Below are positions 33,058 to 61,600 of a DNA stretch of 64,000 bases, one piece after another. The stretch is from a virus (taxonomy: Duplodnaviria > Caudoviricetes), in the IMG/VR virus record IMGVR_UViG_3300037067_022020, positions 89,061-153,060 of that record. One strand, 5' to 3'. The first letter of the stretch is position 1. The number at the start of each line of letters is the position of its first letter. Under the pieces are notes generated by a model. The model was given only the letters and a program-made list of their open reading frames with translations. It was not told where the DNA came from and did no database searches. A program made the position numbers and the translations under genes.

Positions 33058-34443
33058 GTAAACAATAATTTTTCATAAAATTAATAAATTAAATTCAAAA
33101 ATAATTAAAAAATATTTTTAAAAAATCTTTTCTTATATACTTATAATAAAGAAAAAAAAGATGTTATTAACGTTAAAAATAAAACTTAAATTAAGTAAAG
33201 AACAAATTGAAGTATTAGAGAAAACATCTGATAATGCTAGATTATTATATAACAAATTACTTGAAGAAAAAATCAAATATTATGAAGAAACTAAAAAATA
33301 TTTATCATATTATATTCAACAAAAAGAACTGAAAGGCATTACATCGGAATTTCTTACATTTGATTCTAAAAAAGAAATATTAAGAACATTAGATAACAAC
33401 TATAAATCATTTTTTGAACTAATTAAAACTAACAAAGATAAAAATCCAAAGACTCCAAAATTTAGAGGATATAAATATTTTTTTACTTTATCATTTGTAC
33501 AAGATTTCATTATAAAAGATAATAAAATTGTAATTTCTTTACCTAACAGAAAACGATTAATTTTAAATTTAGAATATAATTTACCTATTATTAATTGTTC
33601 ATGTAATAGACATAAAAATGAAAGTAGTGATATCAAGCAACTAAAGATATTCAAAAAGGATAACAATTATTATGCTTCGATAATTTATGAAAAACAAGAA
33701 CAAAAATCAACTAATATTTTAGAAAATATAATTTCTATAGATCTTGGTAAAAAGAATTTAGTTTCTTATTATAATTTCTTAAAGAATATTGGAGTGGTTT
33801 ATAATTCTAAGTATTTAACTAAAAATCAAAAATTCTTAGATAAAAGAGTAGATGAATTGAAATCAATTAGAGACAAAAAAGTTAAATACTCCAGAAAATG
33901 GAAACGAATTAACAAGAAAGTAAAGAACGTCAATAGAAAAAAGAAAACACAAACTAATTTAACATTACAAAAATTAAGTAAAGATTTATCAAATTTAAAT
34001 ACTGATGTATTAATCGGTGAACTTACTAATTTAAAACAAAATATTGTATCTAAAAATAAACATAAATTAAATCGACAGATGCAAAATAATTGGAATTTAT
34101 CAACTTTTATTCGTCTTTTAACTTATAAAGTATGGTTAAAAGGTAATGCAGTAATAAAAGTAAATGAAGCCTGGACTTCAAAAACTTGTTGTAAATGTGG
34201 TACAATTGATTACTCTCAAACATTAGCAGATCGACAATATATTTGTGAATGCGGTAATAATATTAATCGAGATATTAATGGTGCTATCAACATTTTAAAA
34301 CAACACTTGGGCAATTATAATCTGCCACTTGATTTTGATACTTTATCAATTTCAGAAAGATTTTCTTGGTGTGATATCAAGAAAATGAATAGAAATGATA
34401 AGTTTTGTAAGCAATTATGAATTTTATTCGTTTTTATATTATA
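33058..34443 (+). mobile_element. tnpB-only element (family B)
   Basis: Ends defined by homology with 59081-59427 and 17041-17075; preceded by AATATAA. Confidence 0.8.
33161..34420 (+). CDS. tnpB: TnpB RNA-guided nuclease (probable rearranged-Glu RuvC)
   Basis: N-terminal HTH (R..YN..L), SIDLG, LIGEL, VNEAWTSKTCCKC, CECG..NRDING. Confidence 0.9.
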   Translation: MLLTLKIKLKLSKEQIEVLEKTSDNARLLYNKLLEEKIKYYEETKKYLSYYIQQKELKGITSEFLTFDSKKEILRTLDNNYKSFFELIKTNKDKNPKTPKFRGYKYFFTLSFVQDFIIKDNKIVISLPNRKRLILNLEYNLPIINCSCNRHKNESSDIKQLKIFKKDNNYYASIIYEKQEQKSTNILENIISIDLGKKNLVSYYNFLKNIGVVYNSKYLTKNQKFLDKRVDELKSIRDKKVKYSRKWKRINKKVKNVNRKKKTQTNLTLQKLSKDLSNLNTDVLIGELTNLKQNIVSKNKHKLNRQMQNNWNLSTFIRLLTYKVWLKGNAVIKVNEAWTSKTCCKCGTIDYSQTLADRQYICECGNNINRDINGAINILKQHLGNYNLPLDFDTLSISERFSWCDIKKMNRNDKFCKQL

Positions 34444-35455
34444 GTGTTACCACTCGATTTAATACTATTGAAGAAATTATTGAAAGAGGTAAATACATAT
34501 TCAATAAATGGTTTGATAAAAGATGGGGATTGAGTTTAGAAAAAAGTTGGTCCAATAAAACAAAAATTTTAATTAAATAATAGTTACTTATGACAAAACA
34601 GCAATTATTAATTTGGTATATCAAAGTATATTGGAGATTTCTTGGAAAAAAGATAATTTATAAAATTGGAGAAGGGGTGAAAACTCTATCATCAGAAAAA
34701 TATACTATTACTGAAAATGATCTTGTAATGGTTGGTGATAATCTAGAAAAACTATTTAAAGTTATTGATTCATGTAAATATTCTGAACATATTGAGGTAG
34801 CAGAAAGATGTGCCGATGTGTTTTCAACTAGATTTCCATTTGCCCTAATTATATCTAATGTTGTTAATAAAAAAATTGATAAACTTCGACCTAAACTGAG
34901 ATCATATTACGAAATAAGTGAAAGTAATTTAAATTAAAAATGAGCAAACTAGATACATTTCATTATCATGAATCTCTTGATAGATCATGGTGCATTGTTG
35001 ACATTATCCAGACAATTTTGTTAACTCACCCAGTAATTCACAAGCATAAAAAAATTAAAAAACAAGTTAAAAAAGCACGAACTCATTTAATTAATGCTTA
35101 TCAAATGATAGGAAATAAACAATATCATAAATACAAATAATTAAAAATTTATTATCATGTCAAAAACATATACTAAAGGAAATATTGTTATTGAGGAAAT
35201 TAAAATTGGCGATATCCATTATGAGTATGACTGTGGTATGGGAGTGAAAGTACGAGTTATTTCTCTTCCAGTGAAAAATGAAGATCAATGGTCTTGGCAA
35301 GCAGAACAAATATCAACTGGGAGGATTATTGATTATTTAGTAACTGATGGGTATTCTCATTACGGCCCTAACTTATATGACTATGAAGCATATGTTGGTA
35401 TAAATATGCTATAAATGAAAAAAAAGTTATATTTCAAATTTAAATAAATAACATT

Positions 35456-36397
35456 ATGAAAACAAAAATTACAAAATTACAAGTTGGTGATGTAATAAAA
35501 TTAAAACCAGGAATTATACTTGGATTATCTACTGTTTATTCTAAACCATTTTATTCAAAATTACACGAAAAAAATAAAGCTGAAGTTACGAAGATTAATA
35601 AAAGTTCAGTCACAATTAAATTATTTGATGACATATCCATTTGTACTAAGCAATTGAGTGCATATTGGGCCTCATTTACCCATAAAGGAATATCTATCTC
35701 TTCTATTAAATCATGTCGGATCCCATTTATTCGTAATTCAGGAATAAAGGTGAAATTGATAAATTTTGACTCAGATGAACAACGAAAAATTCGGCAATAT
35801 ATTAAAAATGGTAGCAAAGGTAACCTCAATCTCAGCAACACACCAATAACATCACTTCCCGACAATTTAAAACAAGTCGGCGGAAATTTAAATCTCAGCA
35901 ACACACCAATAACATCACTTCCCGACAATCTAACAAGAGTCGGCGGAAGTTTGAATCTTTACAACACACCAATAACATCACTTCCAGATAACTTAACAGT
36001 CGGCGGATATTTGGATCTCCACAACACCAAAATAACATCACTACCAGATAACTTGACAGTTGGCGGGTGGTTGGATCTCAGCAACACACCAATAACATCA
36101 CTACCAGATAACTTGAAAGTCGGCGGATGGTTGGATCTCAACAACACCAAAATAACAAAACTACCAGATAACTTAACAGTGAGAGGAAATGTGTCTCTCA
36201 ACAACACCAAAATAACAAAACTACCAGATAACTTAACAGTTGGTGGATATTTGGATCTCAGCTACACACCAATAACATCATTACCAGATAACTTAACAGT
36301 CAACGGAAATTTGTGGCTTGGCAACACCAAAATAACTTCAATCCCAACTTCAGCAGAAATAAAAGGTGAAATATATGGACTTAAAAAACAAAGTTGA
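35456..36397 (+). CDS. Protein with unrelated N-terminus fused to LRR-like cassette (9 units)
   Basis: (GxLxLxNT[P/K]IT[S/K]LPDNL[T/K]VG)n; 60/63-bp tandem repeat. Confidence 0.8.
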   Translation: MKTKITKLQVGDVIKLKPGIILGLSTVYSKPFYSKLHEKNKAEVTKINKSSVTIKLFDDISICTKQLSAYWASFTHKGISISSIKSCRIPFIRNSGIKVKLINFDSDEQRKIRQYIKNGSKGNLNLSNTPITSLPDNLKQVGGNLNLSNTPITSLPDNLTRVGGSLNLYNTPITSLPDNLTVGGYLDLHNTKITSLPDNLTVGGWLDLSNTPITSLPDNLKVGGWLDLNNTKITKLPDNLTVRGNVSLNNTKITKLPDNLTVGGYLDLSYTPITSLPDNLTVNGNLWLGNTKITSIPTSAEIKGEIYGLKKQS

Positions 36398-36466
36398 AGT
36401 AAAAATTAATTTTTTTTAAAAAACTTTTTTAATTTTTTATTTTTTAAATAATTATTTTAAAATAAA

Positions 36467-36498
36467 TTTGAATTATTAAGAAAAAGTTTTTATATTTA
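36467..36498 (+). promoter_or_regulatory. Class 1 promoter of tRNA operon
   Basis: TTTG-N20-TATATTTA. Confidence 0.7.
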
Positions 36499-36524
36499 TA
36501 ACGAATTTTAAAGAAAAACTTATC

Positions 36525-36620
36525 ATGAACTCGTTTAATAGACATTATCAATTACATATATGGTTTGATGCAAAAACAAGCATTAATCCAATATATAAAA
36601 AATGTGTCCGGGGGTCATGA
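36525..36620 (+). CDS. Putative attenuator leader peptide MNSFNRHYQLHIWFDAKTSINPIYKKCVRGS
   Basis: Manual translation; stop overlaps antiterminator arm. Confidence 0.6.
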   Translation: MNSFNRHYQLHIWFDAKTSINPIYKKCVRGS

Positions 36621-36710
36621 ATCATTTAAACACAGCAACACATTAATAACAACTCTACCAGATAACTGTTTCAGAATGACCCCCGGATATTAAAAATTCG
36701 GGGGTTTTTT
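36604..36710 (+). promoter_or_regulatory. Attenuator: antiterminator 36607-36618/36676-36687 mutually exclusive with terminator 36679-36710
   Basis: TCCGGGGGTCAT/ATGACCCCCGGA perfect 12-bp pair; ACCCCCGGAT-ATTAAAA-ATTCGGGGGT plus TTTTT. Confidence 0.75.
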
Positions 36711-36723
36711 GTTCTTAAAAAAT

Positions 36724-36865
36724 GTGCTTGTGGCTGAGCGGAGATGTAATAGTAAAATTACATCGATAGGTTGCAATTGAAATTGGTATACTATGTGGGC
36801 TTACAACCTTAACATGTAGAAAGTAAATTGCCTACAATACGATAGTTCGAATCTATCCAAGCACG
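36724..36865 (+). ncRNA. tRNA-like RNA with inserted D-loop hairpin and expanded anticodon arm
   Basis: GTGCTTG/CAAGCAC acceptor; GATAG-TTCGAAT-CTATC T arm; no 7-nt anticodon loop. Confidence 0.55.
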
Positions 36866-37035
36866 CTAAATTAAAAGTTCATTGACATACTGTTATTTTA
36901 AAATATAAATTTCACATCTAAAAAGGCGATGGCCAAACTAAGTCGATAAATGTCCAAAATTTATCCATGACCACCAGACGTAGAAAAGAGTCGCGATGCA
37001 ATATCTGGTAACTTGGTTTATTTGTGAAATTATAA

Positions 37036-37107
37036 GCGTTAGTCGTATAATGATTATTATGTCTGCCTTCCACGCAGAAGATGAGATTTTGATTATCTCT
37101 TAACGCT
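37036..37107 (+). tRNA. tRNA-Gly(TCC)
   Basis: TCTGC-CTTCCAC-GCAGA; atypical T loop. Confidence 0.7.
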
Positions 37108-37340
37108 CAGATATGGCGAGGGGTTTCTCAAATCAACTATAATCTTAAGTAATGAGTTGGTTGTCTTTAAACTTAAACGATGAGAAACGGAGACTAAAAA
37201 GTTCGAATCTTTTCCCGGCGCACAAAATACATAAGCTATCTATATATAACGATCTTGGAATATAGAACACTTATGTAAATTCTGGCTTAGGGGGTTCCGT
37301 AAATGGTGATACGAGATACCCCCCTTCGCTGAAATGAAAT

Positions 37341-37427
37341 GTTTGGTTAGTCAAGTGATCGACGACAGCAGGCTGTTAACCTGATGAACTTAATTGTTCC
37401 GCGGAGGTTTGAATCCTTCACCAAACG
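37341..37427 (+). tRNA. tRNA-Asn(GTT) with long variable arm
   Basis: CAGG-CTGTTAA-CCTG; GAAC-TTAATT-GTTC variable stem; G73. Confidence 0.75.
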
Positions 37428-37434
37428 CAATATT

Positions 37435-37518
37435 GCCATTGTCGCATAGCTGGTCAATTGCGGCAGACTGTAAATCTGCTCTCTTCGGAGTTCGGTGGTT
37501 CGAATCCACCCAACGGCA
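37435..37518 (+). tRNA. tRNA-Tyr(GTA)
   Basis: GCAGA-CTGTAAA-TCTGC; canonical cloverleaf. Confidence 0.9.
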
Positions 37519-37731
37519 CAAAAATAATTGAATGATAGATAATGAATCATAATCATAAAATTTCTCAATATTAGAGTCATGGAGGATAACTCGTCTATTA
37601 GGTGACGACCGTAATTCAATTATTTTTAAACAACTCACAACGGACAAGGCTTTGGCTAAAGTTTTATACAACTGATAAAGTGTATAAGACAGATGATGGG
37701 TAGCGTGTGGTTGACCCGAGTTGTTTTTATT

Positions 37732-37805
37732 GACATCGTATCTCAGTTGAATAGAGAGCTCGACTTTTAATCGAGAGGTCGAAGGTTTGAGTCCTTCCGG
37801 TGTCA
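37732..37805 (+). tRNA. tRNA-Lys(TTT)
   Basis: CTCGA-CTTTTAA-TCGAG. Confidence 0.9.
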
Positions 37806-38596
37806 CAATTAAAAATACCCTCTTGAGCCCGACTGGACGTGCGGGACGTAGAAATAAATCACTTTTTGTTTTAAAAAAATCAAACCTTATATACTTATAT
37901 TAAAAGCTAATATAAGGGGTTTGATTATGAAAATATGCGAAAATAAAAAGTGTAATAAAGAACATACCGGCACTTTTGGAAGTGGAAGATTTTGTAGTAG
38001 AAGATGTGCACATGTATTTAGTACATACAATGACGATAGTAAGCAAAAAAAGCTTAAATCATGTATATATTGTGGAAATAAAACATTAGTCAATAAAAGA
38101 ACATCAGCAAAATATGTTTTTTGCGCTAATTGTGAATCAAAATCATCTTCTAGTATTTTATCAAAAAAATGCAAATTTTGTGAAAATTCATTTCTTACTA
38201 AGACAAGAAATAGAAAATTTTGTTCTATGTCTTGTGCAAGTAAACATAAAAAAATAGGAAATAAAAATATAAAACAAATGTGCGAAGCTTTTAAGAAAAA
38301 ATTAAAAGAGAACCCAGGATGGTTTTCATCTCTTCAAAAAGAATTATATAGAACTGGTAAACAACATGTAGGCGGTGGAACAACAAAATGGTATCAATAT
38401 AAAAACATTAAAGTTCAAGGAACATATGAGTTAAGAACTTGTAAAATACTAGATTATTTTAAAGAACAAAAATTAATAAAAGATTGGGATTATACAAATG
38501 ATAGATTTGTTTATACCTATAATGAAGAACAGCATACTTATTTGATTGATTTTAAAGTATATGAAAATAATGAAGATTTCTATTAAATATACTTTT

Positions 38597-39904
38597 CTAT
38601 CTAAATTCATATAAATCTATATAAGATTTTTTATGAAAAGCACTAAAAACTTTAAATGAATGATTACATTCGTCTAAAGAAACTCGATATTTAACTTTCG
38701 ATTTTTTTATAAGCTGACATAACTCTTTCCAATCTTTAACTCCTTCATTGAAATATTCCTTCCATTGGTCTTTCAAGACAGTAATTGTTAAACTTGGATA
38801 AAATTTCTTATTTTTTAATATGATTACATCATATCCTCTTCTTGCAATTTCCATTGACGCATTAATTGGGTCAGGATAATCAAATTTTAAATTACCTATA
38901 TAACTAGTATAAGCTGGGTTAATTCTAAATAATCTTCCACCTACTATATTTATTCTTTTTTCTAGATTCTTAAATAAAATTTCTTTTTTCCAAAGATTAT
39001 TAATTAATCTATTAAATGGTCTACCTTTATGATGATTATTAGAACTTATTTTTTTACTAAAATCTTCTACGAATATAAACTTACACTTATGATAAATTGC
39101 TAATTTAGATATATTTTTTGAAATTTGCAATATTTCGAAATTTAACTTATTTTGTAAATATTTTGATTGTTTGGAATTTGATGCTTTATTTAGAATTTTA
39201 ATTTTGCTAATAATTTTAGTTAAACTAAATAATTTAGTATCAATTAGTTTATCATTTTCAAATACTGTAATTCCTATGAATTCGGGATTTGAATCAATTC
39301 CTATATATCTATTTTGTTTTAACCCGTCATCATAGTCATTTTCTTCTTCAAATGAAATATAGATAAATCTTGAATCTAATTTAACACAAAATGGTAGTTC
39401 TTTATTTTTTGATTTTTCTTCAATATAGGAAAGTTTCTTGAGATAATTTTTATTTATTTTTGGTAAATCTAATATAATTTTTGTTTTCCAATTTGGTTTA
39501 AAGATTATTTGATTATTATCAATTATATTTAATGTAAAAAATCTATTACCTTTTAATCGTGTCTCACCTTGAATTATAACTGGATATAATCGTTTTTCAA
39601 TAAAAGGCAATTTATCTTTTTTACCTTTTAATCGATCATAAAAATTCTTTTTACCTCCAAATATTACTTTACCTGATGGATCTCGTTTATAAACAGTTTT
39701 TGCTTCATTAAATGCATTTTGTACAAACCATGAATTATTAACTAATTCAATATTATTTAATGTATAGCAAAGTTTCTTAATTTCCTCTTGAGTTTTACCC
39801 TCACATAATCTATTATAACAATATCTAATTAGAATAGAATATTGTTTTTGGTATGTTAAGATATCAAAATTTTCAGAAGTATATGGGAGTTTAATTGTTA
39901 TCAT
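38597..39904 (-). CDS. tnpB: TnpB (zinc-finger-less type)
   Basis: IGIDSN, IFVEDF, INPAYTS..D. Confidence 0.85.
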   Translation of the reverse strand: MITIKLPYTSENFDILTYQKQYSILIRYCYNRLCEGKTQEEIKKLCYTLNNIELVNNSWFVQNAFNEAKTVYKRDPSGKVIFGGKKNFYDRLKGKKDKLPFIEKRLYPVIIQGETRLKGNRFFTLNIIDNNQIIFKPNWKTKIILDLPKINKNYLKKLSYIEEKSKNKELPFCVKLDSRFIYISFEEENDYDDGLKQNRYIGIDSNPEFIGITVFENDKLIDTKLFSLTKIISKIKILNKASNSKQSKYLQNKLNFEILQISKNISKLAIYHKCKFIFVEDFSKKISSNNHHKGRPFNRLINNLWKKEILFKNLEKRINIVGGRLFRINPAYTSYIGNLKFDYPDPINASMEIARRGYDVIILKNKKFYPSLTITVLKDQWKEYFNEGVKDWKELCQLIKKSKVKYRVSLDECNHSFKVFSAFHKKSYIDLYEFR

Positions 39905-40524
39905 TTTATTTCTTCATCAATTTCTTGTTTTTCAATAACTAATTGTTTTTCAATTAATTTAAGTTTTTCTTTTCTTCTTTGTGAATATATTTTCATTGTA
40001 AAACAATGAATTAAATCAATAATTTCTTGGAATATTTCCTTTTCTATGAGTTTTTCATTATCTATATCATTTAAAATAATTATTTCGGTTCCAAACGTAC
40101 TAAATAATTGTTTAAACATATTAAATGAGATTCTGCTTAACCTATCTCTATATGTTATAAAAATTCTATCAATTTTATAATTAATTACTTCGTTTAATAA
40201 TGCTTGAAAATTATCTCTGTCAAAATTTAATCCACTGGCTATGTCTAAGTATACATTATGAATTAATATTCCATTTTTATTACAAAATCCCTCAATGATT
40301 TCCTTTTGATTTTGTAGATCTTTTCTTTGATTTTTAGTTGAGACCCGACAATAAATTACATTTTTACGTTCTATATTAGAGTTTAATAAGTTAAAAACAT
40401 CGTCTTTATCATAATTAAACAGACTATTATATGTTTGATATGCTTTAATCTTACCAGATTTTTTATAATTATATAATGTTTGTCGTGATATTCTTAATAC
40501 TCTTAATACTTCTTTTGCTTTCAT
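39901..40524 (-). CDS. tnpA: IS607 serine recombinase/transposase
   Basis: N-terminal HTH (ISRQTLYNY), YCRVST..Q..DL..Q, DIASG, YRDRLSR. Confidence 0.9.
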   Translation of the reverse strand: MKAKEVLRVLRISRQTLYNYKKSGKIKAYQTYNSLFNYDKDDVFNLLNSNIERKNVIYCRVSTKNQRKDLQNQKEIIEGFCNKNGILIHNVYLDIASGLNFDRDNFQALLNEVINYKIDRIFITYRDRLSRISFNMFKQLFSTFGTEIIILNDIDNEKLIEKEIFQEIIDLIHCFTMKIYSQRRKEKLKLIEKQLVIEKQEIDEEIK

Positions 40525-40848
40525 ATTTACTCTTTTAAATAAGTATTAAAATAAAAAATTTTTCAAAATGTTTTATAAAATATTATTATTTTTAATTTGA
40601 TTAGATAAAATAGTTTGGATATTATAAAACTTATTTTATATATTTATATGAATTTTAATGAAAAATTATATTATATTGAAGTAAAAGGATATGAAAAGGA
40701 CGCCGATAAATATAAATGGGAATCTGTTAGAAATTTAGGATTCAAGCTTGAAGTGTGGTTTAATGAAACAATAACAAAATATGAAAAGTTATATGACATC
40801 ATTTAATTTGTTGTCGTTTAAGTTTTTAAGCTAAATATTATTAAAAAT

Positions 40849-40922
40849 ACCGATTGTCGTATAATGGTGAGTATGCCGCCCCGGCATGGTGGAGGTCGCG
40901 AGTTCGAACCTCTCAGTTGGTG
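40849..40922 (+). tRNA. Degenerate tRNA (Asp-like body, loop reads GGC)
   Basis: CCGCC-CCGGCAT-GGTGG; C33; mismatched T stem. Confidence 0.4.
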
Positions 40923-40928
40923 CTAAAT

Positions 40929-41010
40929 GTAGGTGTTGCCGAGAGGTCAAAGGCGCCGGTCTCCAAAACCGGTCGTAAGTTCGTTGGTTCGATTCCTTCT
41001 ATGTGTGCGC
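40929..41010 (+). tRNA. tRNA-Trp(CCA), degenerate acceptor and T stems
   Basis: CCGGT-CTCCAAA-ACCGG. Confidence 0.55.
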
Positions 41011-41013
41011 AAT

Positions 41014-41099
41014 GCCTCCTTCCGTTAGTGATCGATACGGCCTGCCTTGTAAGCAGGAAACCTTTTTGGTTCGCGTTGGTTTGAATCCAGCAGGGGGCT
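41014..41099 (+). tRNA. tRNA-Thr(TGT) with long variable arm
   Basis: CCTGC-CTTGTAA-GCAGG; AACC-TTTTT-GGTT variable stem. Confidence 0.75.
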
Positions 41100-41122
41100 T
41101 TTTTTATAACTTAATATGTAAC

Positions 41123-41195
41123 AGTGGTATAGCTCAACTGGTAGAGTTTTTGACTGATATTCAAAAGGTTCTTGGTCCGAGTCCAAGTATCACTA
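41123..41195 (+). tRNA. tRNA-Ile(GAT)
   Basis: TTTGA-CTGATAT-TCAAA. Confidence 0.8.
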
Positions 41196-41201
41196 CAAAA
41201 T

Positions 41202-41277
41202 AGAGCAGTTCCAGCAGATGGCTATACGGGCCGCGTTTGGGGCGCGGTATTCGCAGGTTCGAATCCTGTCTGCTCTA
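41202..41277 (+). tRNA. tRNA-Pro(TGG)
   Basis: CCGCG-TTTGGGG-CGCGG. Confidence 0.8.
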
Positions 41278-41281
41278 CAAT

Positions 41282-41355
41282 GGGTCATTGGTGAAATAGG
41301 CTATCATAGAAGCTTCGCAAACTTCAGTTATGGGTTCAATTCCCATATGTATCCA
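41282..41355 (+). tRNA. Degenerate tRNA (Arg-TCG or Ala-CGC)
   Basis: GAAG-CTTCGCAAA-CTTC; bulged acceptor; good T arm. Confidence 0.4.
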
Positions 41356-42142
41356 CATCAAAAATAATTGAAAATAAATTTGATTTTTTCAATAAATTTT
41401 ATTAATTTTATAGTATAAATTAAATAATTAAATTATGAAAACATCATCAACAAAAGTTATTACAATTACAAATAATGTCGATTATGAAAATGGTTTTGGT
41501 TGTGAATATACCATAGTAAATGGTAAATTTATGTTTGGTCATTTTTATAATGAGTTATACAATTATCTTTATTATGTTGATGAAAAAACACTTAATAAAT
41601 TAAAGAATAATCATTGGTCTGAACACCATAAACTATATAAAGAGCCGAAAATAACAAAACAATGGTTGGAAAATTTTAATGAATTTGATAAATTAATTTA
41701 TATCGGTGGTGGAAGGGATGGAATACTTGCATATTCGAATGGAACATTTATATCAACTCCCATTAAATTCGATGATATATTTTTCCATTGCTGGGAACAT
41801 ATCGAAACAACAAAAGAAGAATGTGAAAAAATTCTCAAATCAATGAACTCAAATTTTATAACATCGAGTAATATTATCGAAATTCCTTATTATAACCAAT
41901 CTGAAGATGCTGAAGATCATTACACATTAACCATAACTGTAAAATTACCTGATGATATTTATTTGAATATTCTTAATGGTAATAAATATATTGATGATAT
42001 TTTCAAACAGAAAGTTGTTAAATTTTTAAAACAGTAAATTTGCATCATTAGAAAACTATTCTATTTCTGTCTATGTATCCACATTAAAAAATAAATTTGA
42101 TTTTTTCAATAAATTTTATTAATTTTATAGTATAAATTAAAT
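41346..42142 (+). repeat. Direct repeats (tRNA 3' end plus class 1 promoter; 41346-41423 and 42072-42142) flanking ORF 41435..42037
   Basis: TATGTATCCACAT..AAATAAATTTGATTTTTTCAATAAATTTTATTAATTTTATAGTATAAATTAAAT present twice. Confidence 0.8.
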
Positions 42143-42145
42143 GAT

Positions 42146-43705
42146 ATGAAACTTTCAAAAAAGCAAATAGAAGTTATAAATTTAATGAAGGACACTTATA
42201 TTGTTTGGGTCTCTGGATTAAATCCTTTTTGTTTTTTACACAAATATGTGTCATATAAATTGTCAATAGCAACATTCTTTAAGTTAAAAGATTCAAAATT
42301 AATCTGCTCAAATGGACATTTAGATAATAAAGGTGATGAAGACCAATATATTTTAACAGATCTTGCAGTCGAATTACTTGATGAATTTAAACAAAGATCA
42401 TGAAAGCATATAAAATCTGGCATGACACGAGATATTTTATCCATAAGAATAACATCACAGATTATTCCGTTATGTGGACTACAAACATTGAAGATGCTAA
42501 AGATGTACCTACCTTTTCTGGGGCGGTGAAATTCTTTTCTGATAAACTTGGATTTAACATCTACTCCGGATATGATAGGCTTCATTTATTATAACATTTA
42601 ACATTATGAAAACTTTCGATGATTTTTACAACAAAAAATTAAAACAAGAGGCAAGATATGCAAAAAAACATAAAAAGAGTACTAAAGAATTCATAGAACA
42701 TAATTATAAGTCAATGACAGAATACAAAAAGTTCATGGAACATTTGTACGTTATGAAGGAATGCCATTCATTTTGGCATAGGGATTGTGAAAATAAAAAT
42801 ATTGAATGCCATCGATGCAGCAAATTTTATTCATATGCTGATTTTGATAAAATGAGTGCGAAACAACAAAGAAATATTTAATTTTATACTAATTTAAAAT
42901 TTAAAACCATGAAAAAATCAACAACTGAATTATTCGTTGCCTATCGAGATGGGTTTGATATTGATGAAGTTTTTACAACTTTGATTGAAGCAGAAGAAGC
43001 AGCTGAAAAATTTAATATTCAACATAAATTAATATCTAGAACAAACCCATATAAAGCAATGACATTAGATACAGCAATCTATTTGCTGAAAGTAAGTCTA
43101 TCTGAATAAAGGATAAATATATAAAAAATTATGAGCTCGTTAAACAAAATACCAAAATTCAAAATCGAAAATCGTTCAGATTTTATTGAACATAATCTAT
43201 CATTATTTTATCCCAAATTATCAAAAAAGGAAGCTCGAAATCTTTTAAAGGGGATTTGGAATTTGTATAATACTGCTTTGAAAGCCGGTTATAATAAAGG
43301 TAAATATTTCCCGGATTTTGAAGATTAATCTATTAAACAAATAAAGTTAATAATCATAACTAGATAAGAAATTATGAAATATTTTGAAAAAAGAAATTGG
43401 TTAACTATATTAAGCATTTAGAACATCCAAAATTACCCTATCCACAAGGTTATATTGATAATCATAAAACTGAAATTGATATGTTAAAATGGTTAATCGG
43501 TTGTTATGAAGGTAGAACAGCATCAAAACCAATAGAATATTTGGAAGCATTATTAGATAAATCCGAAAATTATCAAGATTATGTTAATGAAATGAATAAC
43601 CATAATATCACACCAATGAGTGATGTTGATAGATTAAAAATGAAACTCAAAGAAATATCAGTTTTATATAATTGGGTTTATTATAAGAAAATTATAGGAT
43701 TTTAA
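42146..43705 (+). other. Small hypothetical ORFs inserted in tRNA array
   Basis: ORF track. Confidence 0.5.
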
Positions 43706-43893
43706 TTATGAAACTAAAGTATTCACAGAATGTAAAATAAAATTAAAAATTAATCAATATAACTTGGAAAGAAGAAGATGTGTGGGTTCTCATGGAAGAT
43801 ACTATTACACACATTAAATATTTTCGTGAAAGTTCTTCATTTGGTATCTGGAATGGAGAAATTGTAATAAAATCCGAGTAAAAATTTTCATAC

Positions 43894-43964
43894 TGTCGGG
43901 TATGCCAATGTAGACGGCGAAGCTTATATCTTCGAGGTTGTGGGTTCAAGTCCCACCCCGACTA
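43894..43964 (+). tRNA. tRNA-Ile(TAT)
   Basis: CGAAG-CTTATAT-CTTCG; GTGGG-TTCAAGT-CCCAC. Confidence 0.7.
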
Positions 43965-43972
43965 CAAATTTT

Positions 43973-44047
43973 GGATTAATCGTATAGGTGGTAATTGTAC
44001 GTTGGACTAAAAATCCAAAGGCTGTCGTTTGACTTGACGTTAATCCA
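43973..44047 (+). tRNA. tRNA with AAA anticodon (Phe)
   Basis: TTGGA-CTAAAAA-TCCAA; GGATTAA/TTAATCC acceptor. Confidence 0.6.
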
Positions 44048-44813
44048 CAAACTTTAAAATATATTTATAAATTTAAAATCAAAAACTTATGAAAAAAATT
44101 TTAATTGCCATAATGTTATTTACATTAGTTTCTTGTTCTTTAAATAGAATAGATAAAAATGGATATATTATTGTAAATAGAGTTGAAAAGACCACAAATG
44201 AGAAAATGTATAAAGTGTTTATCAATACTTATTCTTCAAATGGACTTCTTGTCGACCCCAAAAATAGTGCATTCTTAATAACCACAAAAAAGTATTTCCC
44301 CGGTGATACGATTAATAAATGAATCATGAATTGAATATCTGCTAAACTTTTATATTATGACCAGAATCGAAAAAATAGAAAAAAGAATTAAAGAACTTGA
44401 CGACATTCTTGAAAAAAGACAAAAAGAATGGTGGAGTATGAAAGATAAAAATACAACATTTAGTACCTTTACAGGTAGTTGGGAGGAATATTGTAAATAT
44501 CGTGAACCAGAAATTTCAGAAGTCATCGTTCTCGAAAGAGAAAAAAGAATGTTAATGACCCCACAATTATCAGAACCAATGAAATCTGACTTGGATGGAA
44601 AGGTAATTGGGGATTTATTTACGATTAAAGAATTTATCGAAAATTGTGAGGATGGTGGTTTTATTGATTATGACGGATCCGGAAATTATGCTAAAGAAGT
44701 TAATGGAAAAATGATGGAAAGTAATATCAGTATTTTTCCATCTGATATAAAAAACAAAAGCATTAGAGTAGATTTTACCCATGTGCTTTGGTATAATAGA
44801 TGATTAAAAAAAT

Positions 44814-44887
44814 TGATCTATAGTGTAATTGGTCAACACGTCAGATTTTGAATCTGAAGACTCTTTGTTCGAATCAAAGTAGATCAA
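44814..44887 (+). tRNA. tRNA-Gln(TTG)
   Basis: TCAGA-TTTTGAA-TCTGA. Confidence 0.85.
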
Positions 44888-45091
44888 CAAAATTCATAGT
44901 ATAAAATATTTATTAGAAAATGAAAACACGATCAAAAATTCATAAAATTAAAAATTTGTATATAAATGGAAACTGTACAATAAAAATAAACATTGAATTG
45001 TATAGTATATGGAATAATTTTATATTTAAAATATTTAAATTTTGCTATGATAATAGAATTCCTGATTTCTACTATCCAGCAATTTAAACTT

Positions 45092-45166
45092 ACTCTCGTC
45101 GTCTAGTTGGTCCAGGACATCAGGTTTTCAACCTGAAGATCAGGAGTTCAAATCTCCTCGAGAGTA
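45092..45166 (+). tRNA. tRNA-Glu(TTC)
   Basis: TCAGG-TTTTCAA-CCTGA. Confidence 0.9.
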
Positions 45167-45261
45167 CAAAATGATAAGTCTTCTCTACACACAAGTGTTA
45201 GTGGTCGACTAAATGGAGACAAATGGAAACTAGTAGCCCATAGACTTATCATTTTGTTTTT

Positions 45262-45346
45262 GCTCATATGTCGTAATAGGAAGCCGAGATGGACTTAAAA
45301 TCCATTGGTCAATGTGATCGTGTCAGTTCGAATCTGGCTATGAGCA
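45262..45346 (+). tRNA. tRNA-Leu(TAA)
   Basis: ATGGA-CTTAAAA-TCCAT; long variable arm. Confidence 0.85.
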
Positions 45347-45355
45347 CTAATAAAT

Positions 45356-45444
45356 GGAAAGTAAAACTGGTGTAGGACTGGTCGCGGTCTTGAAAACCGA
45401 TGGTACAGCATAGACTGTATGGGAATCGTGCTCTCTACTTTCCG
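45356..45444 (+). tRNA. tRNA-Ser(TGA)
   Basis: CGGT-CTTGAAA-ACCG; long variable arm; atypical T loop. Confidence 0.7.
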
Positions 45445-45728
45445 CAAAAATAATTCCTGAAAGTAAATTGGAAAAGTATTTGAATGAAGGTTGGAAACAA
45501 GGAAAACAATTTAAAAATAAATTATGAAACTATCTAAAGAAGTTCGTAAAAATCTAGCAATTATACATGGTGCCAATACAAGAGAAGTATTATATCAAAT
45601 AGAAGAAATATTTGAGCAGAAAGATAAATATGAGGAATTACAAGAGTTGTCAACAGAAGAGTATACTATGTTAATTGAATTATTAGAAAAATATTTAGAT
45701 ATGATACTTAAAATTATTTAATGATTAA

Positions 45729-45802
45729 ACCTTCGTAGGAGAATTGGTATATCCACTGGATCCAGGCTCCAGGATGTAAGAGTTCGAATCTCTCCGAAGG
45801 TA
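45729..45802 (+). tRNA. Atypical tRNA (loop TCCAGGC, CAG/Leu?)
   Basis: ACCTTCG/CGAAGGT acceptor; C33; short variable loop. Confidence 0.4.
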
Positions 45803-46065
45803 CTAATATTTTTAACACTATATAAAATGAAGAAGAGTAAAATCATAATAACATTTACTGAAAATGAGGTCAAAGACATTGTAAAGGAATATGTCGAGAA
45901 AAACATCGGAAAAGTCGTTAAAATCAAATCTAAGATCAAACTGATTTGGGATGGTGATACAGATGGCAAGTTTCCTGACAAATTTGATGGAATGACAGTT
46001 GAGCTCGAAGAAAAAATAAATAGCATTTGAATATGGTGTCTGAAGCATTGATGATATGAATATAT

Positions 46066-46140
46066 GGTGTTTGTAGATAATTGGCAGTCGGCCGCACTGT
46101 GGATGCGTGCATGGTTCCAGTTCGAGTCTGGATAAACACC
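46066..46140 (+). tRNA. tRNA-His(GTG)
   Basis: CGCA-CTGTGGA-TGCG; G-1:C73. Confidence 0.8.
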
Positions 46141-46187
46141 CAAAAATTATCTTATAACAAAAGTTGAATAAATTTGTTACAAATTTT

Positions 46188-46277
46188 GGAAGCAAGGCGA
46201 ATATTGACTTTGTCGCGTATGTTTGCTAAACATATCCGGTTTGAACCCCGGTAAAGGTTTGATTCCTTTTGTTTCCG
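46188..46277 (+). tRNA. tRNA-Ser(GCT)
   Basis: TATGT-TTGCTAA-ACATA; long variable arm. Confidence 0.8.
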
Positions 46278-46522
46278 CAAGAAACAGTTGTAAAAATTTG
46301 TTGGTTAGTAATGTAAAAAGACTATACGTAAGTCTGAGCGATCCACGCATTGGGATTAGTGCACAGGAGTCCTATTGCAATCGTACCAGCTTTGATGTAT
46401 TGAATTTAAATTGTTATGAAGCAGGGCGCAGTAACGGACTAATAGCTGTAATAAATTAATCAATACATAAACATGAATATGTCTAACATAGTGCTAAAAA
46501 GCTCACTTCAACTGTTTCACAT

Positions 46523-46594
46523 GCTCATTTGGTGTAATGAATAGCACGGATCGCTACGGACGATTTAGTTTGGGTTTGAATCCTTAAATGAGCG
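46523..46594 (+). tRNA. tRNA-Arg(ACG)
   Basis: GATCG-CTACGGA-CGATT. Confidence 0.8.
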
Positions 46595-46599
46595 CTAAT

Positions 46600-46671
46600 G
46601 GTTCTTTAGTTAAATGGATATAACAAGAATTTTCTAAATTCTAGTTAATGGTTCGATTCCATTAAGAACTA
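46600..46671 (+). tRNA. tRNA-Arg(TCT)
   Basis: AGAAT-TTTCTAA-ATTCT. Confidence 0.85.
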
Positions 46672-46679
46672 CAATAATT

Positions 46680-46750
46680 GGCATTGTGGCCGAGTGGTTA
46701 GGCAAAGGTCTGCAAAACCTATTACATCTGTTCGAATCAGATCAATGTCT
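46680..46750 (+). tRNA. tRNA-Cys(GCA)
   Basis: AGGT-CTGCAAA-ACCT; U73. Confidence 0.9.
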
Positions 46751-46761
46751 CAAAAAATATT

Positions 46762-48382
46762 TTTGATTTATTCAGAAAATTTTATTAATTTTATATCATA
46801 ATTAAAATTAAGCAACATGAGTAAACATAACAAAGAATATTTCGACGCTTTCAGAAAGGAAGTTGAATCTGCTGTTGCAAATATTGCAAAACGTAGAAAT
46901 CTCAAGATCACTGCAGGGAATATAACCCTCGAAAATGAAAGAAACTTCAAACTCACACTTCAAATAAAAGAAGGTGATTCTAAAGCAGCTGAAGCTATGG
47001 AACGAAGTAAATGGGATCTCGATTGTAAAAGATATGGATTAGATCCTGAAGATTTTGGAAAAACATTCATATATCATGGTGCAACTTATCGAGTAACAGG
47101 AATTAAACCTTTCGCAAAATGTCCGATCTTGACAGATAGTGACATTCAATTCTCACCTGAATTATTCCTCCGTCTTGTTCGAGAAATGAAATCATAAATA
47201 ATATTTCAATCATCAAATATTTTAACAAATCTAAAGTTATGAGCCAAAGTGAATTTCCAAAAATTAAAATAATCGATAATCTACATAAAGGTGATATCGG
47301 ATTATGGTATGATGTTCAAGCATATGTAAATGGTCATCTAATTCATCATGTTTGCGATTATGATAAATGTAATTCATTTGAAGAAGCGATTAAGTTTTAT
47401 TTTAAAACATTTTACAAAAAATCGGATCATGTATTACTAATAACACATCATAAATTCAGTGCATTTTATTTAAAACAAATTTGTTTAGCGGCTTAAATAA
47501 AATTGAATCAAAATGAGAATGTGGAAAGTCGACCCGAAAATTCTTTGCAATAAGCATTTACTCGGAATGCATGTAGAAATGCATATGTTTTTGGGAACTC
47601 TACAAAAGAAAAAATCAATAACAGGATATATAAAAAATGATCTTTTCGAACCATTAAAATTAAAAGAATTTCATGATGCTATTGCCAATGAAATGATTCA
47701 GAGAAATATGAACCATAAAACTCCATTAGATTATAACAATAAGATTTTCAATTATTTAACCGAAGAAGAATTGCATCATTCAATTAACGGTAAAAAATCA
47801 CTAAAAGAGTTAAATAGAAGATGTAATAACTGTTTAAAAAATCAATAATATTTTTGATTTATTCGGAAAATTTTATTAATTTTATATCATAATCAAAATT
47901 TTGCAACATTTAATAAATAATAACATGAGAATTAAAGAAATTACTTCGCAAAATCGTTGGGACTTTCAGGCAATTTATGAATGTGAACATTGTGGATTTA
48001 CTGAAAGAGATTATGGATATGATGACACTTATTTCCATCAGACAGTAATTCCAAATAAAGTTTGTACACACTGCGGTAAAAAAGCTGGAGAAAATTATCG
48101 TCCTTTAGCAACAAAATATCCTGATTGGGTAGAATTTTAACATAAAAAAATTAATCATCATGGAAATATCAGATATTCAAATGTTAGAAAATGGCAAAAT
48201 TGAAATAACATTTTGTTCTTTGGAAGATTCAGAAGATATTATCTCAATTAAATTAGATAGAAACGCAATGTGGGATATAGCGAAATTCTGTCATAATAAA
48301 TTAAGTTATAGAACAGATTTAATTAAAATCTAAAAAATAAAACAAATATTTTTGATTTATTCAGAAAATTTTATTAATTTTA
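46762..48382 (+). promoter_or_regulatory. Three near-identical class 1 promoters (46762-46793, 47853-47884, 48351-48382)
   Basis: ATATTTTTGATTTATTC(A/G)GAAAATTTTATTAATTTTATA repeated. Confidence 0.75.
47513..47848 (+). CDS. Pyrimidine-dimer DNA glycosylase/endonuclease V-like protein
   Basis: MRMW..P..LC.KHLLG.H.E.H..EM..R..NH.TP. Confidence 0.6.
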   Translation: MRMWKVDPKILCNKHLLGMHVEMHMFLGTLQKKKSITGYIKNDLFEPLKLKEFHDAIANEMIQRNMNHKTPLDYNNKIFNYLTEEELHHSINGKKSLKELNRRCNNCLKNQ

Positions 48383-48674: not shown

Positions 48675-49313
48675 ATGAAGTCTAAAATTGCTGAAGAAAA
48701 AATCCTAATCCCCCGACGTACTCCAGAAGAACGACGGAAAAATTTCATCAAAGCGACACAACAGAAGATTCAACAATACATCAAAAATGGCAGCAACGGA
48801 GATCTTGACCTCCGCAACACACCAATAACATCACTTCCCGACAATCTAACAAGAGTCGGCGGGAGTCTGAATCTCGGCAACACCAAAATAACATCACTTC
48901 CAGATAACTTAACAGTCGGCGGATGGCTGGATCTCTACAACACACCAATAACATCACTTCCCGACAATCTAACAAGAGTCGGCGGGAGTCTGAATCTCGG
49001 CAACACCAAAATAACATCACTTCCAGATAACTTAACAGTCGGCGGGAGTCTGAATCTCGGCAACACCAAAATAACATCACTTCCAGATAACTTAACAGTC
49101 GGCGGATGGCTGGATCTCACCAACACACCAATAACAAAACTACCAGATAACTTGACAGTCGGCGGATGGTTGTATATCAACAACACTCCAATAACATCTC
49201 TACCAGATAACTTAAAAGTCGGCGGAAGTTTGTATCTCCGCAACACCAAAATAACATCAATCCCAACCTCAGAAAAAATAAAAGGTGAAATATATAGACT
49301 TAAAAAAATATGA
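48675..49313 (+). CDS. Stand-alone LRR-like cassette protein (8 units)
   Basis: Same caps and repeats as 62535..63842. Confidence 0.8.
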   Translation: MKSKIAEEKILIPRRTPEERRKNFIKATQQKIQQYIKNGSNGDLDLRNTPITSLPDNLTRVGGSLNLGNTKITSLPDNLTVGGWLDLYNTPITSLPDNLTRVGGSLNLGNTKITSLPDNLTVGGSLNLGNTKITSLPDNLTVGGWLDLTNTPITKLPDNLTVGGWLYINNTPITSLPDNLKVGGSLYLRNTKITSIPTSEKIKGEIYRLKKI

Positions 49314-50136: not shown

Positions 50137-51459
50137 ATGGACTATTATCTTGCTCTATTAATCCCCATTATTGTAACAGTAATTTTTTATTTTTTTCGTA
50201 AAAATAAGTTTACTTGGTGGGAATTTTTTATTCCTATTGCAGTAATTGCTATTACAATTTTAATATCAAAACTAATTATTGATACTACATCAGTTACTTT
50301 TACAGAGTATTGGGGGTCAACAATAACTGCAGTTTATGAAGAAGAACCATATAATTATTGGCATCAAGAAACTTGTTCATATACTACTTGTACAGGAACT
50401 GGAAAAACTCAAGTTTGCATAACTCATTATTATGATTGTTCACACCAAGATGATGTTGGGCCATCTTGGAAAGCAGTTACAAACATCGGCGAAGAATTTA
50501 GCATAAGTGAAAGAGTATATGATCAATTAATAAAACAATTTAAAACAAAAAGAGTTATTATTAAGTTAAGATCAAATCATGATCCCGATGATTATTGCGT
50601 TAGTAGTAAAAAAACTAAATTTGCAGGTAAAAAAGTAGGTAACATATCATATGTATATGAAACTAGATGGAATGGAAATGATGAAACTAGAAAAGCATAT
50701 ACTAGTAAACATCATTATAAGAATAAAATAAAAGCAACTGATTTATCAATTTTTAACATATCAATTGTAAATGAAAAGCAAGCAGATAGTTTGGGATTAT
50801 TTCGATATCCAGAATATAATGATGACGGTCTCGAATATCCGACTATTTTAGGAAAAAATATTTCATCAATTACTCAAGAAAAATTTAAAAGATTAAACGG
50901 AAAATTCGGGATAAGTAATGAATTAAGATTATGGATATTGATATTTGAAAACAAACCATTGACAATAGCCCGACAACAAGAAAACTTCTGGGTTAAGGGA
51001 AATATGAACGAATTTGTTCTTTGTATTGGAAAAAAAGGAAATCAAATTCAATGGGCTCATACATTTTCCTGGGCATTATCTAATGAATTAACAATCGATA
51101 TACGTAATAAAGTAATGAACTTATATCAATTTAAAGATACTATAATTAAAATTCAGCAACCACCAGTTATTTCAAAATTAACTAAAAAAGTAAGAAGATT
51201 AAATGTATCTACTGAAATAAAGGATTCAACTATAAGAATAAAATTTCCATCATATCCAGTTTTAAATGAAATAACTTGGGATGAATTGTATAAATTTTTA
51301 AATAAAAATCTTAATAAATACAAGAGACGCGATTTTAAAGAATTCGACTATCTTACAGTCGAACCACCAACATGGGCAATTATTATCATTTACGTAATTG
51401 CAATTATTATTTCAGTCGGAATTAATTTATGGATTATTAAAAATAATTTTGAAGATTAA
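50137..51459 (+). CDS. Membrane protein (2 N-terminal and 1 C-terminal TM, Cys-containing loop)
   Basis: Hydrophobic segments; CSYTTCTGTGKTQVC. Confidence 0.6.
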   Translation: MDYYLALLIPIIVTVIFYFFRKNKFTWWEFFIPIAVIAITILISKLIIDTTSVTFTEYWGSTITAVYEEEPYNYWHQETCSYTTCTGTGKTQVCITHYYDCSHQDDVGPSWKAVTNIGEEFSISERVYDQLIKQFKTKRVIIKLRSNHDPDDYCVSSKKTKFAGKKVGNISYVYETRWNGNDETRKAYTSKHHYKNKIKATDLSIFNISIVNEKQADSLGLFRYPEYNDDGLEYPTILGKNISSITQEKFKRLNGKFGISNELRLWILIFENKPLTIARQQENFWVKGNMNEFVLCIGKKGNQIQWAHTFSWALSNELTIDIRNKVMNLYQFKDTIIKIQQPPVISKLTKKVRRLNVSTEIKDSTIRIKFPSYPVLNEITWDELYKFLNKNLNKYKRRDFKEFDYLTVEPPTWAIIIIYVIAIIISVGINLWIIKNNFED

Positions 51460-51461
51460 AT

Positions 51462-57824: not shown

Positions 57825-57866
57825 TTTAATTTCCCCTCCTCAGGGAATTTATAGAGTTATTAATGT

Positions 57867-60931: not shown

Positions 60932-61600
60932 TTAGTTTTTTACAATCTGCTTTAACTCTGATTTTTTCATAATTCTTTCATTTTTAAGTCCATATATTTT
61001 TCCTGATATTTTTGCTGATGGTGGGATTGTTGTTATTTTGGTGCTGTTGAGCCACAAATCTCCGTTGACTGTTAAGTTATCTGGTAGAGTTGTTATTGGT
61101 GTGTGGCTGAGATTCAAACTTCCGCCGACTTTCAAGTTATCTGGTAGTGATGTTATTAGTGTGTGGCTGAGCCACAGATCCCCGCCGACTGTCAAGTTAT
61201 CTGGTAGAGTTGTTATTTTGGTGTTGCTGAGATTCAGATATCCGCCAACTGTTAAGTTATCTGGTAGTTTTGTTATTGGGGTGTTGCCAAGATTCAGATA
61301 TCCGCCGACTTTCAAGTTATCTGGTAGAGTTGTTATTTTGGTGCCGAGGAGACCCAGATATCCGCCGACTTGTTTTAAATTGTCGGGGAGTGATGTTATT
61401 GGGGTGTGATCGAGATACAAACTTCCGCCGACTTGTTTTAAATTGTCGGGAAGTGATGTTATTGGGGTGTAGCTAAGATTCAAACTTCCTCTGCTACCAT
61501 TTTTGATGTACTGTTGAATTTTTTCTCGTGCAAAAATTTCATTTTGCTTAGATTCATTTAATACTTCTTTTATTAATTGTTTTAATTCTGATTTTTTCAT
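60932..61600 (-). CDS. MKKSEL-motif plus LRR cassette (8 units)
   Basis: MKKSELKQ at both N- and C-termini around the LRR. Confidence 0.8.
   Translation of the reverse strand: MKKSELKQLIKEVLNESKQNEIFAREKIQQYIKNGSRGSLNLSYTPITSLPDNLKQVGGSLYLDHTPITSLPDNLKQVGGYLGLLGTKITTLPDNLKVGGYLNLGNTPITKLPDNLTVGGYLNLSNTKITTLPDNLTVGGDLWLSHTLITSLPDNLKVGGSLNLSHTPITTLPDNLTVNGDLWLNSTKITTIPPSAKISGKIYGLKNERIMKKSELKQIVKN

Follow-up and report, generated by a model that had tools for sequence, protein, structure and literature searches.

Described attenuators and the phage locus

The closest described counterpart of the phage element examined here is the attenuator of whiB7 (wblC) in mycobacteria and other Actinobacteria, in which a short upstream open reading frame (uORF) free of codon runs overlaps a terminator and an antiterminator, a ribosome stalled anywhere in the uORF causes read-through, and the output helps the cell cope with translation stress. 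The whiB7 uORF of M. smegmatis encodes 19 of the 20 amino acids, and starvation for many of these triggers a response; its responsiveness follows uORF composition, with hits for 18 of the 20 amino acids among biosynthetic, tRNA, and synthetase genes (PMC10274678). An earlier annotation of our DNA (the first-pass annotation) held that classical leaders are runs of one amino acid, which ignores this many-amino-acid precedent (PMC10274678). The phage element is a candidate transcription attenuator at positions 36467 to 36720 of a 64,000-nt window from IMG/VR record IMGVR_UViG_3300037067_022020. The phage contig is a single sequence of 153,060 bp (28% GC, standard genetic code), of which the window covers the right-hand 64 kb; all coordinates are given within the window unless stated otherwise. 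The element comprises a promoter, a 31-codon leader ORF, and an intrinsic terminator with a competing upstream arm, and it precedes a cluster of tRNA genes. Whereas the whiB7 attenuator lies on bacterial chromosomes, governs a transcription factor, and has an alanine-enriched uORF, this candidate element is phage-borne, would have tRNA genes and tRNA-like RNAs as its output, and bears no sequence relation to whiB7.

The leaders of amino-acid operons (trpL, hisL, leuL, thrL, pheL, and ilv) have the same four-segment logic, in which the leader's start region pairs with the segment after it, a strand shared by terminator and antiterminator, and a stop codon placed for masking. Unlike them, the phage element has no regulatory codon run and no Rfam leader match, its downstream RNAs do not specify biosynthetic enzymes, and its first segment includes the start codon itself. 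A third group comprises the antibiotic-responsive ribosome-stalling attenuators ermK, vmlR, lmo0919, and bmrB-bmrCD, which were found by Term-seq. These also combine a uORF with a terminator and an antiterminator, sense slowed translation in general, and activate a gene that restores translation, but they respond to drug-bound ribosomes, usually through specific arrest peptides, and are chromosomal or plasmid-borne elements of Firmicutes with a protein output. Among related T4-like phages, two complete IMG/VR relatives have a strong hairpin with a T tract 40 to 260 nt before the first tRNA of an array; there, however, the terminator lies directly 3' of a conserved 125-amino-acid gene, with no intervening promoter, leader ORF, or competing arm. 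A full-text literature search found no published attenuator controlling tRNA genes. We class attenuation mediated by a uORF or leader as known; the novelty would lie in its application to phage tRNA genes and in its construction from a gene relic.

Phage tRNA genes are usually seen as constitutive helpers of codon usage and, more recently, as replacements for tRNAs cut by host defenses. If a ribosome-operated switch does precede such genes, the phage would gauge decoding capacity and make tRNAs on demand, a feedback loop on translation. The locus may also illustrate the birth of such a device, in which the promoter, terminator, and open frame come with a collapsed gene copy and the competing arm arises through a few substitutions. 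With its small size of 250 nt, the element lends itself readily to reporter tests. Its value is limited because the phage is a singleton at this locus and the switch would govern only four tRNAs and two tRNA-like RNAs.

Competing hairpins upstream of the tRNA genes

The terminator (Table 1) ranks third in strength in the 153-kb genome and is the sole strong one on the plus strand between 34 and 48 kb; because the minus strand has no T tract, it acts in one direction only. The first-pass annotation described a perfect 12-bp pairing between 36607-36618 and 36676-36687, whose second arm is shared by a terminator with a U tract that ends 14 nt before a tRNA-like gene. Both structures are present and somewhat larger than described: the two segments are exact reverse complements in a helix that extends to 14 bp plus 4 more, and the terminator has a stem of 11 pairs and a T6 tract. 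The antiterminator and terminator hairpins are thus mutually exclusive and share one strand, as in leader-peptide attenuators.

We examined this competition by folding the seven strongest terminators of the phage with 175 nt of native upstream sequence and comparing each with 200 controls in which the upstream sequence was dinucleotide shuffled. In its native context, the terminator at 36678-36710 formed with a probability of 0.17, whereas among the shuffled controls the median was 0.998, the 5th percentile was 0.996, and none of the 200 was as low. The six other strong terminators kept their hairpins (five with a probability of at least 0.99, and the weakest with 0.75, no lower than its own shuffles), and all of them matched their shuffled controls. 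Of the seven, only the terminator before the tRNA genes is therefore out-competed by its own upstream sequence.

The full-length RNA without a ribosome was near-balanced, with 0.38 of the ensemble in the terminator and 0.62 in the antiterminator. Folding of the two states, a check proposed in the first-pass annotation, yielded both of them, as the minimum free energy (MFE) structure carries the terminator and the centroid carries the antiterminator. The unit from promoter to terminator had a fold z-score of -3.6. In folds of the nascent RNA, arm 1 paired with the start-codon region (36523-36533) at a probability of ~0.6 until transcription reached 36675, and the sequence UCAUGA is present at both the start and the stop codon of the leader. 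In these folding models, segment A and arms 1 to 3 make up four segments laid out as in trp. The analysis shows the sequence elements, their geometry, and a competition between structures that is more than chance, and we think it quite likely, judging from the folding models, that the terminator/antiterminator switch is real.

The locus matched no leader, T-box, or riboswitch family of Rfam (cmscan of 34000-48000 with E values up to 1, which gave only tRNA-clan matches at any position and none at 36467-36720). A repeated or mobile element was rejected, as the sequences of the arms are found nowhere else in the genome.

Table 1. Features of the candidate attenuator, the genes after it, and the promoter family.
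Feature	Position	Strand	Description
Class-1 phage promoter P36467	36467..36498	+	TTTG, 20 nt, TATATTTA; Bacteroidota-type -33/-7 layout; one of 15 family copies
Segment A, start-codon region	36523..36533	+	UCAUGAACUCG; predicted partner of arm 1 until arm 2 is transcribed, a pairing also in the full-length MFE structure
Leader ORF	36525..36620	+	31 codons and TGA (36618-36620), 19 amino-acid kinds; putative leader peptide
Overlapping frame, LRR-gene relic	36568..36693	+	41 codons; N-cap QYIKN and one LRR unit; TAA (36691-36693) in the terminator loop
Arm 1, antiterminator 5' strand	36605..36618	+	Covers the last leader codons and the first stop-codon base; exact complement of arm 2
LRR-unit relic, loop between arms 1 and 2	36633..36670	+	74% identity to paralog consensus
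Arm 2, shared strand	36676..36689	+	Partner is arm 1 or arm 3, by folding
Intrinsic terminator	36678..36710	+	11-pair stem (36678-36706), 7-nt loop, T6 tract; dG -15.7 kcal/mol
First downstream gene, tRNA-like RNA	36724..36866	+	Canonical acceptor and T arm, no normal anticodon arm
Rest of tRNA cluster A	37036..37806	+	tRNA-Gly(UCC) 37036-37107; second tRNA-like RNA ~37115-37222; tRNA-Asn 37341-37428; tRNA-Tyr 37435-37519; tRNA-Lys 37732-37806
Last gene of the putative unit	37927..38586	+	219-aa protein, possibly zinc ribbon; opposite-strand IS607-like element next
Promoter family sites, examples	1377, 13684, 16391, 22519, 25797, 28285, 32074, 36467, 41379, 42096, 46762, 47853, 48351	+	15 in all

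Position of the leader ORF and ribosome masking

The class-1 promoter that opens the element is present where the first-pass annotation placed it and belongs to a family of 15 nearly invariant copies of ~34 bp (consensus approximately TTTGAATTATTCAnAAATTTTTATTAATTTTATA), all on the plus strand. In most copies the first ATG after the promoter opens a real gene, and in most copies other than P36467 it lies 13 to 40 nt past the -7 box (61 and 90 nt in two cases). The leader ATG at 36525, 26 nt past the -7 box of P36467, falls inside this range. As judged from the sequence, a short ORF between the promoter and the genes it would regulate is positioned as the leader of an attenuator would be. The gene starts of this phage are A-rich and have no Shine-Dalgarno sequence, so accessibility of the start codon should matter, and the leader start region was 72 to 76% unpaired in the nascent RNA.

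To describe the effect of a translating ribosome, we placed a masked footprint of 30 nt at every position of the A site. An A site at codons 3 to 24 gave the antiterminator a probability of 0.80 to 0.996, and one from codon 25 to the stop codon gave the terminator a probability of at least 0.97. The model thus reproduces the trp/his-type logic proposed in the first-pass annotation, in which a stall leads to read-through and a ribosome at the stop codon leads to termination. The stop codon is placed such that a terminating ribosome would mask arm 1 and an earlier stall would leave it free, a statement about geometry only, and in the model both the length of the ORF and the position of its stop fit the switch.

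Amino-acid composition of the leader

The leader has 31 residues of 19 kinds, with only Glu absent, and includes the codons named for it earlier (Ser TCG, AGC, and TCA; Arg AGA and CGG; Ile ATA and ATT). Such diversity is rare in random ORFs of this composition: the probability of 19 kinds in 31 residues was 0.001 to 0.004 under three null models and 0.025 with uniform usage, and none of 3,312 stop-free windows of the phage genome reached it. Cys, Val, and Gly are present only in the codons of arm 1 (Cys-Val-Arg-Gly-Ser), four of which are set by the GC-rich arm sequence, and in the masking model a stall in these codons gives termination and not read-through. When these five codons were held fixed, the probability of the observed diversity was 0.013 under a proteome model and 0.002 under a nucleotide model.

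No codon run in the leader is longer than Lys-Lys, unlike in single-amino-acid attenuators of the trp, his, leu, thr, or phe type, and this excludes that subtype but not a multi-amino-acid subtype like that of whiB7. By analogy with whiB7, a functional stall sensor without codon runs would respond to many shortages. Most leader codons are those preferred by the phage, and 19 of the 23 effective codons (codons 2 to 24) can be read by a phage-encoded tRNA, as expected in any case. A deliberate "pan-amino-acid" design of the leader is suggestive but not established.

Reach of the switch

About 20 tRNA genes, all on the plus strand, lie between 37036 and 46751 (ARAGORN and Rfam). A promoter scan found no promoter of the TTTG/TAnnTTT type between 36500 and 39000, so the tRNA-like gene at 36724, which starts ~14 nt past the T tract, seems dependent on read-through, and this apparent dependence argues that the terminator is meant to be bypassable. 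Farther downstream, class-1 or similar promoters are found at 40614 (a variant), 41379, 42096, 46762, 47853, and 48351, and an IS607-like pair (a serine-recombinase transposase and a TnpB-like protein) on the minus strand at 38597-40524 separates tRNA clusters A and B. Because of these internal promoters and the opposite-strand insertion sequence (IS), the switch can govern at most cluster A (36724-38586). The claim that it controls "the tRNA operon" is thus possible for cluster A but fails for the rest, which has its own promoters and is split off by the IS. A boxA-like GTTCATTGACA noted at 36877 in the first-pass annotation is unsupported, as its 3 matches with at most one mismatch compare with 1.9 expected, and the other tRNA clusters have none in front of them.

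In two RNAs of cluster A (36724-36866 and ~37115-37222), the acceptor stem and the T arm (GTTCGAATC) are canonical but a normal anticodon arm is absent; such a T arm is also found at 46253-46269. The first contains a 7-bp hairpin with a 6-nt loop and an insert of ~66 nt. Neither was called by ARAGORN in its default mode or by Rfam, and they may be tRNA mimics or degenerate tRNAs. An intron-containing suppressor tRNA at 36724-36866 was rejected, since the ARAGORN -i model for it has a poor anticodon stem.

A decayed LRR gene beneath the element

The first-pass annotation missed that the element overlies the relic of a leucine-rich repeat (LRR) gene with a second, overlapping frame of 41 codons. 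Read in the +1 frame, 36568-36693 corresponds to the N-cap (…IQYIKN…) and one unit (…NTLITTLPDN…) of the dispersed LRR gene family of this phage, and the translated frame matches the paralog at 48675 with 49% identity over 35 amino acids (BLASTP E value, 3e-7). At the nucleotide level, a stretch of 35 nt (36633-36667) has 94% identity with a paralogous LRR unit at another site of the genome (E value, 3e-9). Identity to the LRR paralog consensus was 68 to 74% in two blocks (36583-36604 and 36633-36670) and at a background level of 31 to 44% in arms 1 to 3, with arm 1 at only 31%. From these alignments, the 3' half of the element is what remains of an LRR gene copy after its collapse, and within it the sequence of all three arms is newly derived. 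That the arms are the most diverged parts of the relic fits a secondary creation of the switch, and neutral template-switch events are a possible origin of the arms.

Members of the LRR family that share the N-cap (KIQQYIKNGS.G) and near-identical 60-nt units are found at 35456-36397, 48675-49313, 60932-61600, and 62535-63842, and at ~32.6 kb and ~66.4 kb of the genome. A template repeat of a diversity-generating retroelement was rejected, as there is no reverse transcriptase in the ~70%-complete genome record.

Proposed mechanism and rival explanations

The best single explanation, which we hold with about even confidence, is a ribosome-mediated transcription attenuator on the LRR relic that gates read-through from P36467 into the first tRNA cluster; we infer the use of the promoter, translation of the ORF, the setting of the fold by the ribosome, and any tie to tRNA cleavage by host defenses. 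Transcription would start near 36505, and a ribosome would load on the accessible ATG at 36525. A fast ribosome would reach the TGA at 36618-36620 and cover arm 1, leaving arm 2 to pair with arm 3, and RNA polymerase would terminate at the T tract (36705-36710) to release an RNA of ~200 nt. A ribosome held in codons 3 to 24 would leave arm 1 free; released from the start-codon region, arm 1 would pair with arm 2 (14 + 4 bp) and block the terminator, and transcription would proceed into the two tRNA-like RNAs, tRNA-Gly, -Asn, -Tyr, and -Lys, and the gene at 37927-38586. Because it has no codon runs and 15 amino-acid kinds in its effective part, the leader would report general decoding speed or shortages of many charged tRNAs, as the whiB7 uORF does, and the switch would act as feedback on translation capacity.

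It is important to note that several observations weigh against this mechanism or against a pan-amino-acid leader. In part the masking result is built into the model, since arm 2 is freed whenever arm 1 is masked. Given how often stop codons occur at this base composition, we estimated the chance that a first-ATG ORF ends in the useful interval at ~1 in 9, and the start-context score of the leader is at the 18th percentile of the real starts of the phage. For the 15 kinds in the 23 effective codons, the proteome model gave a probability of 0.11 and the nucleotide model one of 0.018. The claim that the leader would stall on a shortage of almost any tRNA therefore keeps its switch logic in the model but is reduced to these 15 kinds, the ones at which a stall antiterminates, with a diversity there that is not clearly beyond chance. 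The relic frame, if translated instead, would oppose the switch, as a ribosome on the terminator suppresses termination in the manner of pyrBI. As the genome record is only ~70% complete (CheckV), an unrecognized promoter class could feed the tRNAs. Comparison with other genomes gave no support either: the locus was found in only one other assembly, where its sequence is 100% identical; at 90% identity, the clusters of four neighboring proteins held no full-length variant on another usable contig; and in distant relatives (46 to 52% identity in the major capsid protein [MCP]) the tRNAs are preceded by a plain gene-end terminator or by nothing.

The switch could also be real without being set by a ribosome on the 31-codon ORF, as a constitutive partial terminator that fixes the mRNA-to-tRNA ratio or as a device that answers to an RNA-binding protein or small RNA (of phage or host) or to the timing of infection. 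The competing structure is highly non-random and bistable with no ribosome, the placement of the ORF would not be very surprising by chance (~0.1), and the ORF starts in a mediocre context, all of which would suit this alternative. Yet the ORF starts at the promoter distance typical of the family and stops exactly in arm 1, its start codon pairs with arm 1 in a layout that is sensible mainly if translation is involved, and neither an Rfam riboswitch, T-box, or leader match nor candidate protein-binding repeats were seen, so that we regard a switch free of the ribosome as unlikely. Somewhat more doubtful is that the element has no function and is an LRR gene with its own promoter and terminator that collapsed to one unit, whose terminator still ends that unit and blocks transcription from upstream. 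Arm 1 would then be a neutral product, for instance of a template switch that "corrected" a quasi-palindrome, and both the 31-codon ORF and the diversity of its residues would be accidental. The stretch 36568-36693 is demonstrably a decayed LRR N-cap with one unit, the order of gene, terminator, and promoter is the usual layout in this phage, and ordinary terminators before the tRNA arrays of distant relatives are in keeping with such an origin. What this leaves poorly explained is a perfect, GC-rich complement of 12 to 14 bp in a 28% GC genome (chance by composition, ~1e-6), a competition that no shuffle reproduced between two states of closely balanced energy, and an RNA gene without its own promoter that starts 14 nt past the terminator.

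Two further alternatives assign a role to other parts of the unit. In a coupling of the pyrBI type through the 41-codon relic ORF (ATG at 36568), a ribosome close behind RNA polymerase would cover arms 2 and 3 and prevent termination, giving more read-through when translation keeps up with transcription. An open frame of 41 codons has a probability of ~0.03 by composition in such AT-rich DNA, and this one ends inside the terminator loop and differs in length from the LRR paralogs by multiples of three; recent descent from a coding gene, however, explains the open frame. Its ATG lies in the stem of a local hairpin (only 38 to 40% unpaired), 60 nt from the transcript start and behind another ATG, and its start-context score is no better than that of the leader, which makes such a coupling highly improbable. 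It is also very unlikely that the 200-nt unit from promoter to terminator is itself the product, either a small structured RNA or a gene for a 31- or 41-residue peptide, unrelated to tRNA expression: the unit does have its own promoter and terminator and a marked fold z-score, but neither peptide nor RNA matches anything known, and both the upstream arm that matches the terminator strand and the transcription of the adjacent RNA genes would go unexplained.

The ribosome-mediated attenuator can be taken a step further, to a purpose-built tRNA-damage sensor recently born from a decayed LRR gene that switches on a cassette of counter-measures, a reading we judge to be improbable. Anticodon nucleases or starvation would deplete any of ~15 decoding species and stall ribosomes in the leader, and the cassette would consist of two anticodon-less tRNA mimics, possibly decoys, and replacement tRNA-Asn, -Tyr, -Lys, and -Gly. 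These four are species of the kind cut by known anticodon nucleases. A pan-amino-acid design by purpose, together with a role against such nucleases, is likewise speculative and has little probability in our view.

Comparison with relatives

Several searches were made for variants of the locus. BLASTN of 36300-37400 against the INPHARED phages matched only a tRNA-Gly, and IMG/VR gave no matches to the LRR protein encoded upstream, to the promoter consensus, or to an 18-mer from the tRNA-like gene. The N-domain of the LRR protein had no matches, homologues of the gene at 37927-38586 were at most 47% identical apart from the gene itself, and the MCP relatives in IMG/VR were at most 54% identical over the full length. 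A scan of GTDB genomes found nothing. With the promoter as query, a scan of JGI metagenomes gave six short contigs, some from diverged relatives, none of which covers the leader.

The first-pass annotation had proposed looking upstream of the tRNA arrays of related phages for a shared design. In the distant relatives, this position holds an ordinary terminator after a 125-amino-acid gene, or no such element, and the attenuator design is therefore not ancestral to the T4-like group. Flavobacterium phage immuto and the 484-kb phage LR756508 have no attenuator-like element before their tRNAs. The 125-amino-acid gene (MSEFQL...GIPDHLDD) has no homologue in the phage studied here; in the two complete IMG/VR relatives (176 to 180 kb), it is conserved and followed by the strong terminator just upstream of the tRNA arrays (regions 50500-54000 and 42500-46200).

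Host signals and other features of the region

The MCP of the phage is T4-like, with ~51 to 53% identity to those of Flavobacterium phage immuto and Microcystis phage Mel-JY01. The recurrent phage promoter has the TTTG/TAnnTTT layout typical of Bacteroidota, which makes a Bacteroidota-like host plausible on sequence grounds. The promoter consensus is also found on short JGI metagenome contigs (Ga0172375/80/81) that share little other DNA identity with the phage, so diverged relatives exist in those metagenomes. The MCP gene (56208-57824, minus strand) has a GGAGG Shine-Dalgarno-like box and a TATAAAT motif upstream (57825-57860), unlike the bulk of the phage genes. A T4-type late promoter TATAAAT downstream of the terminator was rejected, as this motif shows no enrichment ahead of genes.

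A separate IS605 OrfB/TnpB gene with a Cas12f1-like TNB domain lies on the plus strand at 33161-34420, 2 kb upstream of the leader. Within cluster A, a G5...C6 hairpin (TTAGGGGGTTCCG...ATACCCCCCTT) at 37285-37330 stands directly 5' of tRNA-Asn. Before cluster B, the variant promoter at 40614 is followed by a 52-codon ORF (both within 40614-40806), the N terminus of which (MNFNEK...) resembles that of the leader (MNSFNRH...); a second attenuator there was rejected, as this small ORF is accompanied by no terminator. ARAGORN assigned unusual anticodons to tRNA-Phe(AAA) and tRNA-Ala(CGC), with the sites listed as 43973-44048, 41282-41354, and 45356-45443, and a weak tRNA-Sec-like match in Rfam (25.7 bits, below the cutoff) adjoins tRNA-Leu.

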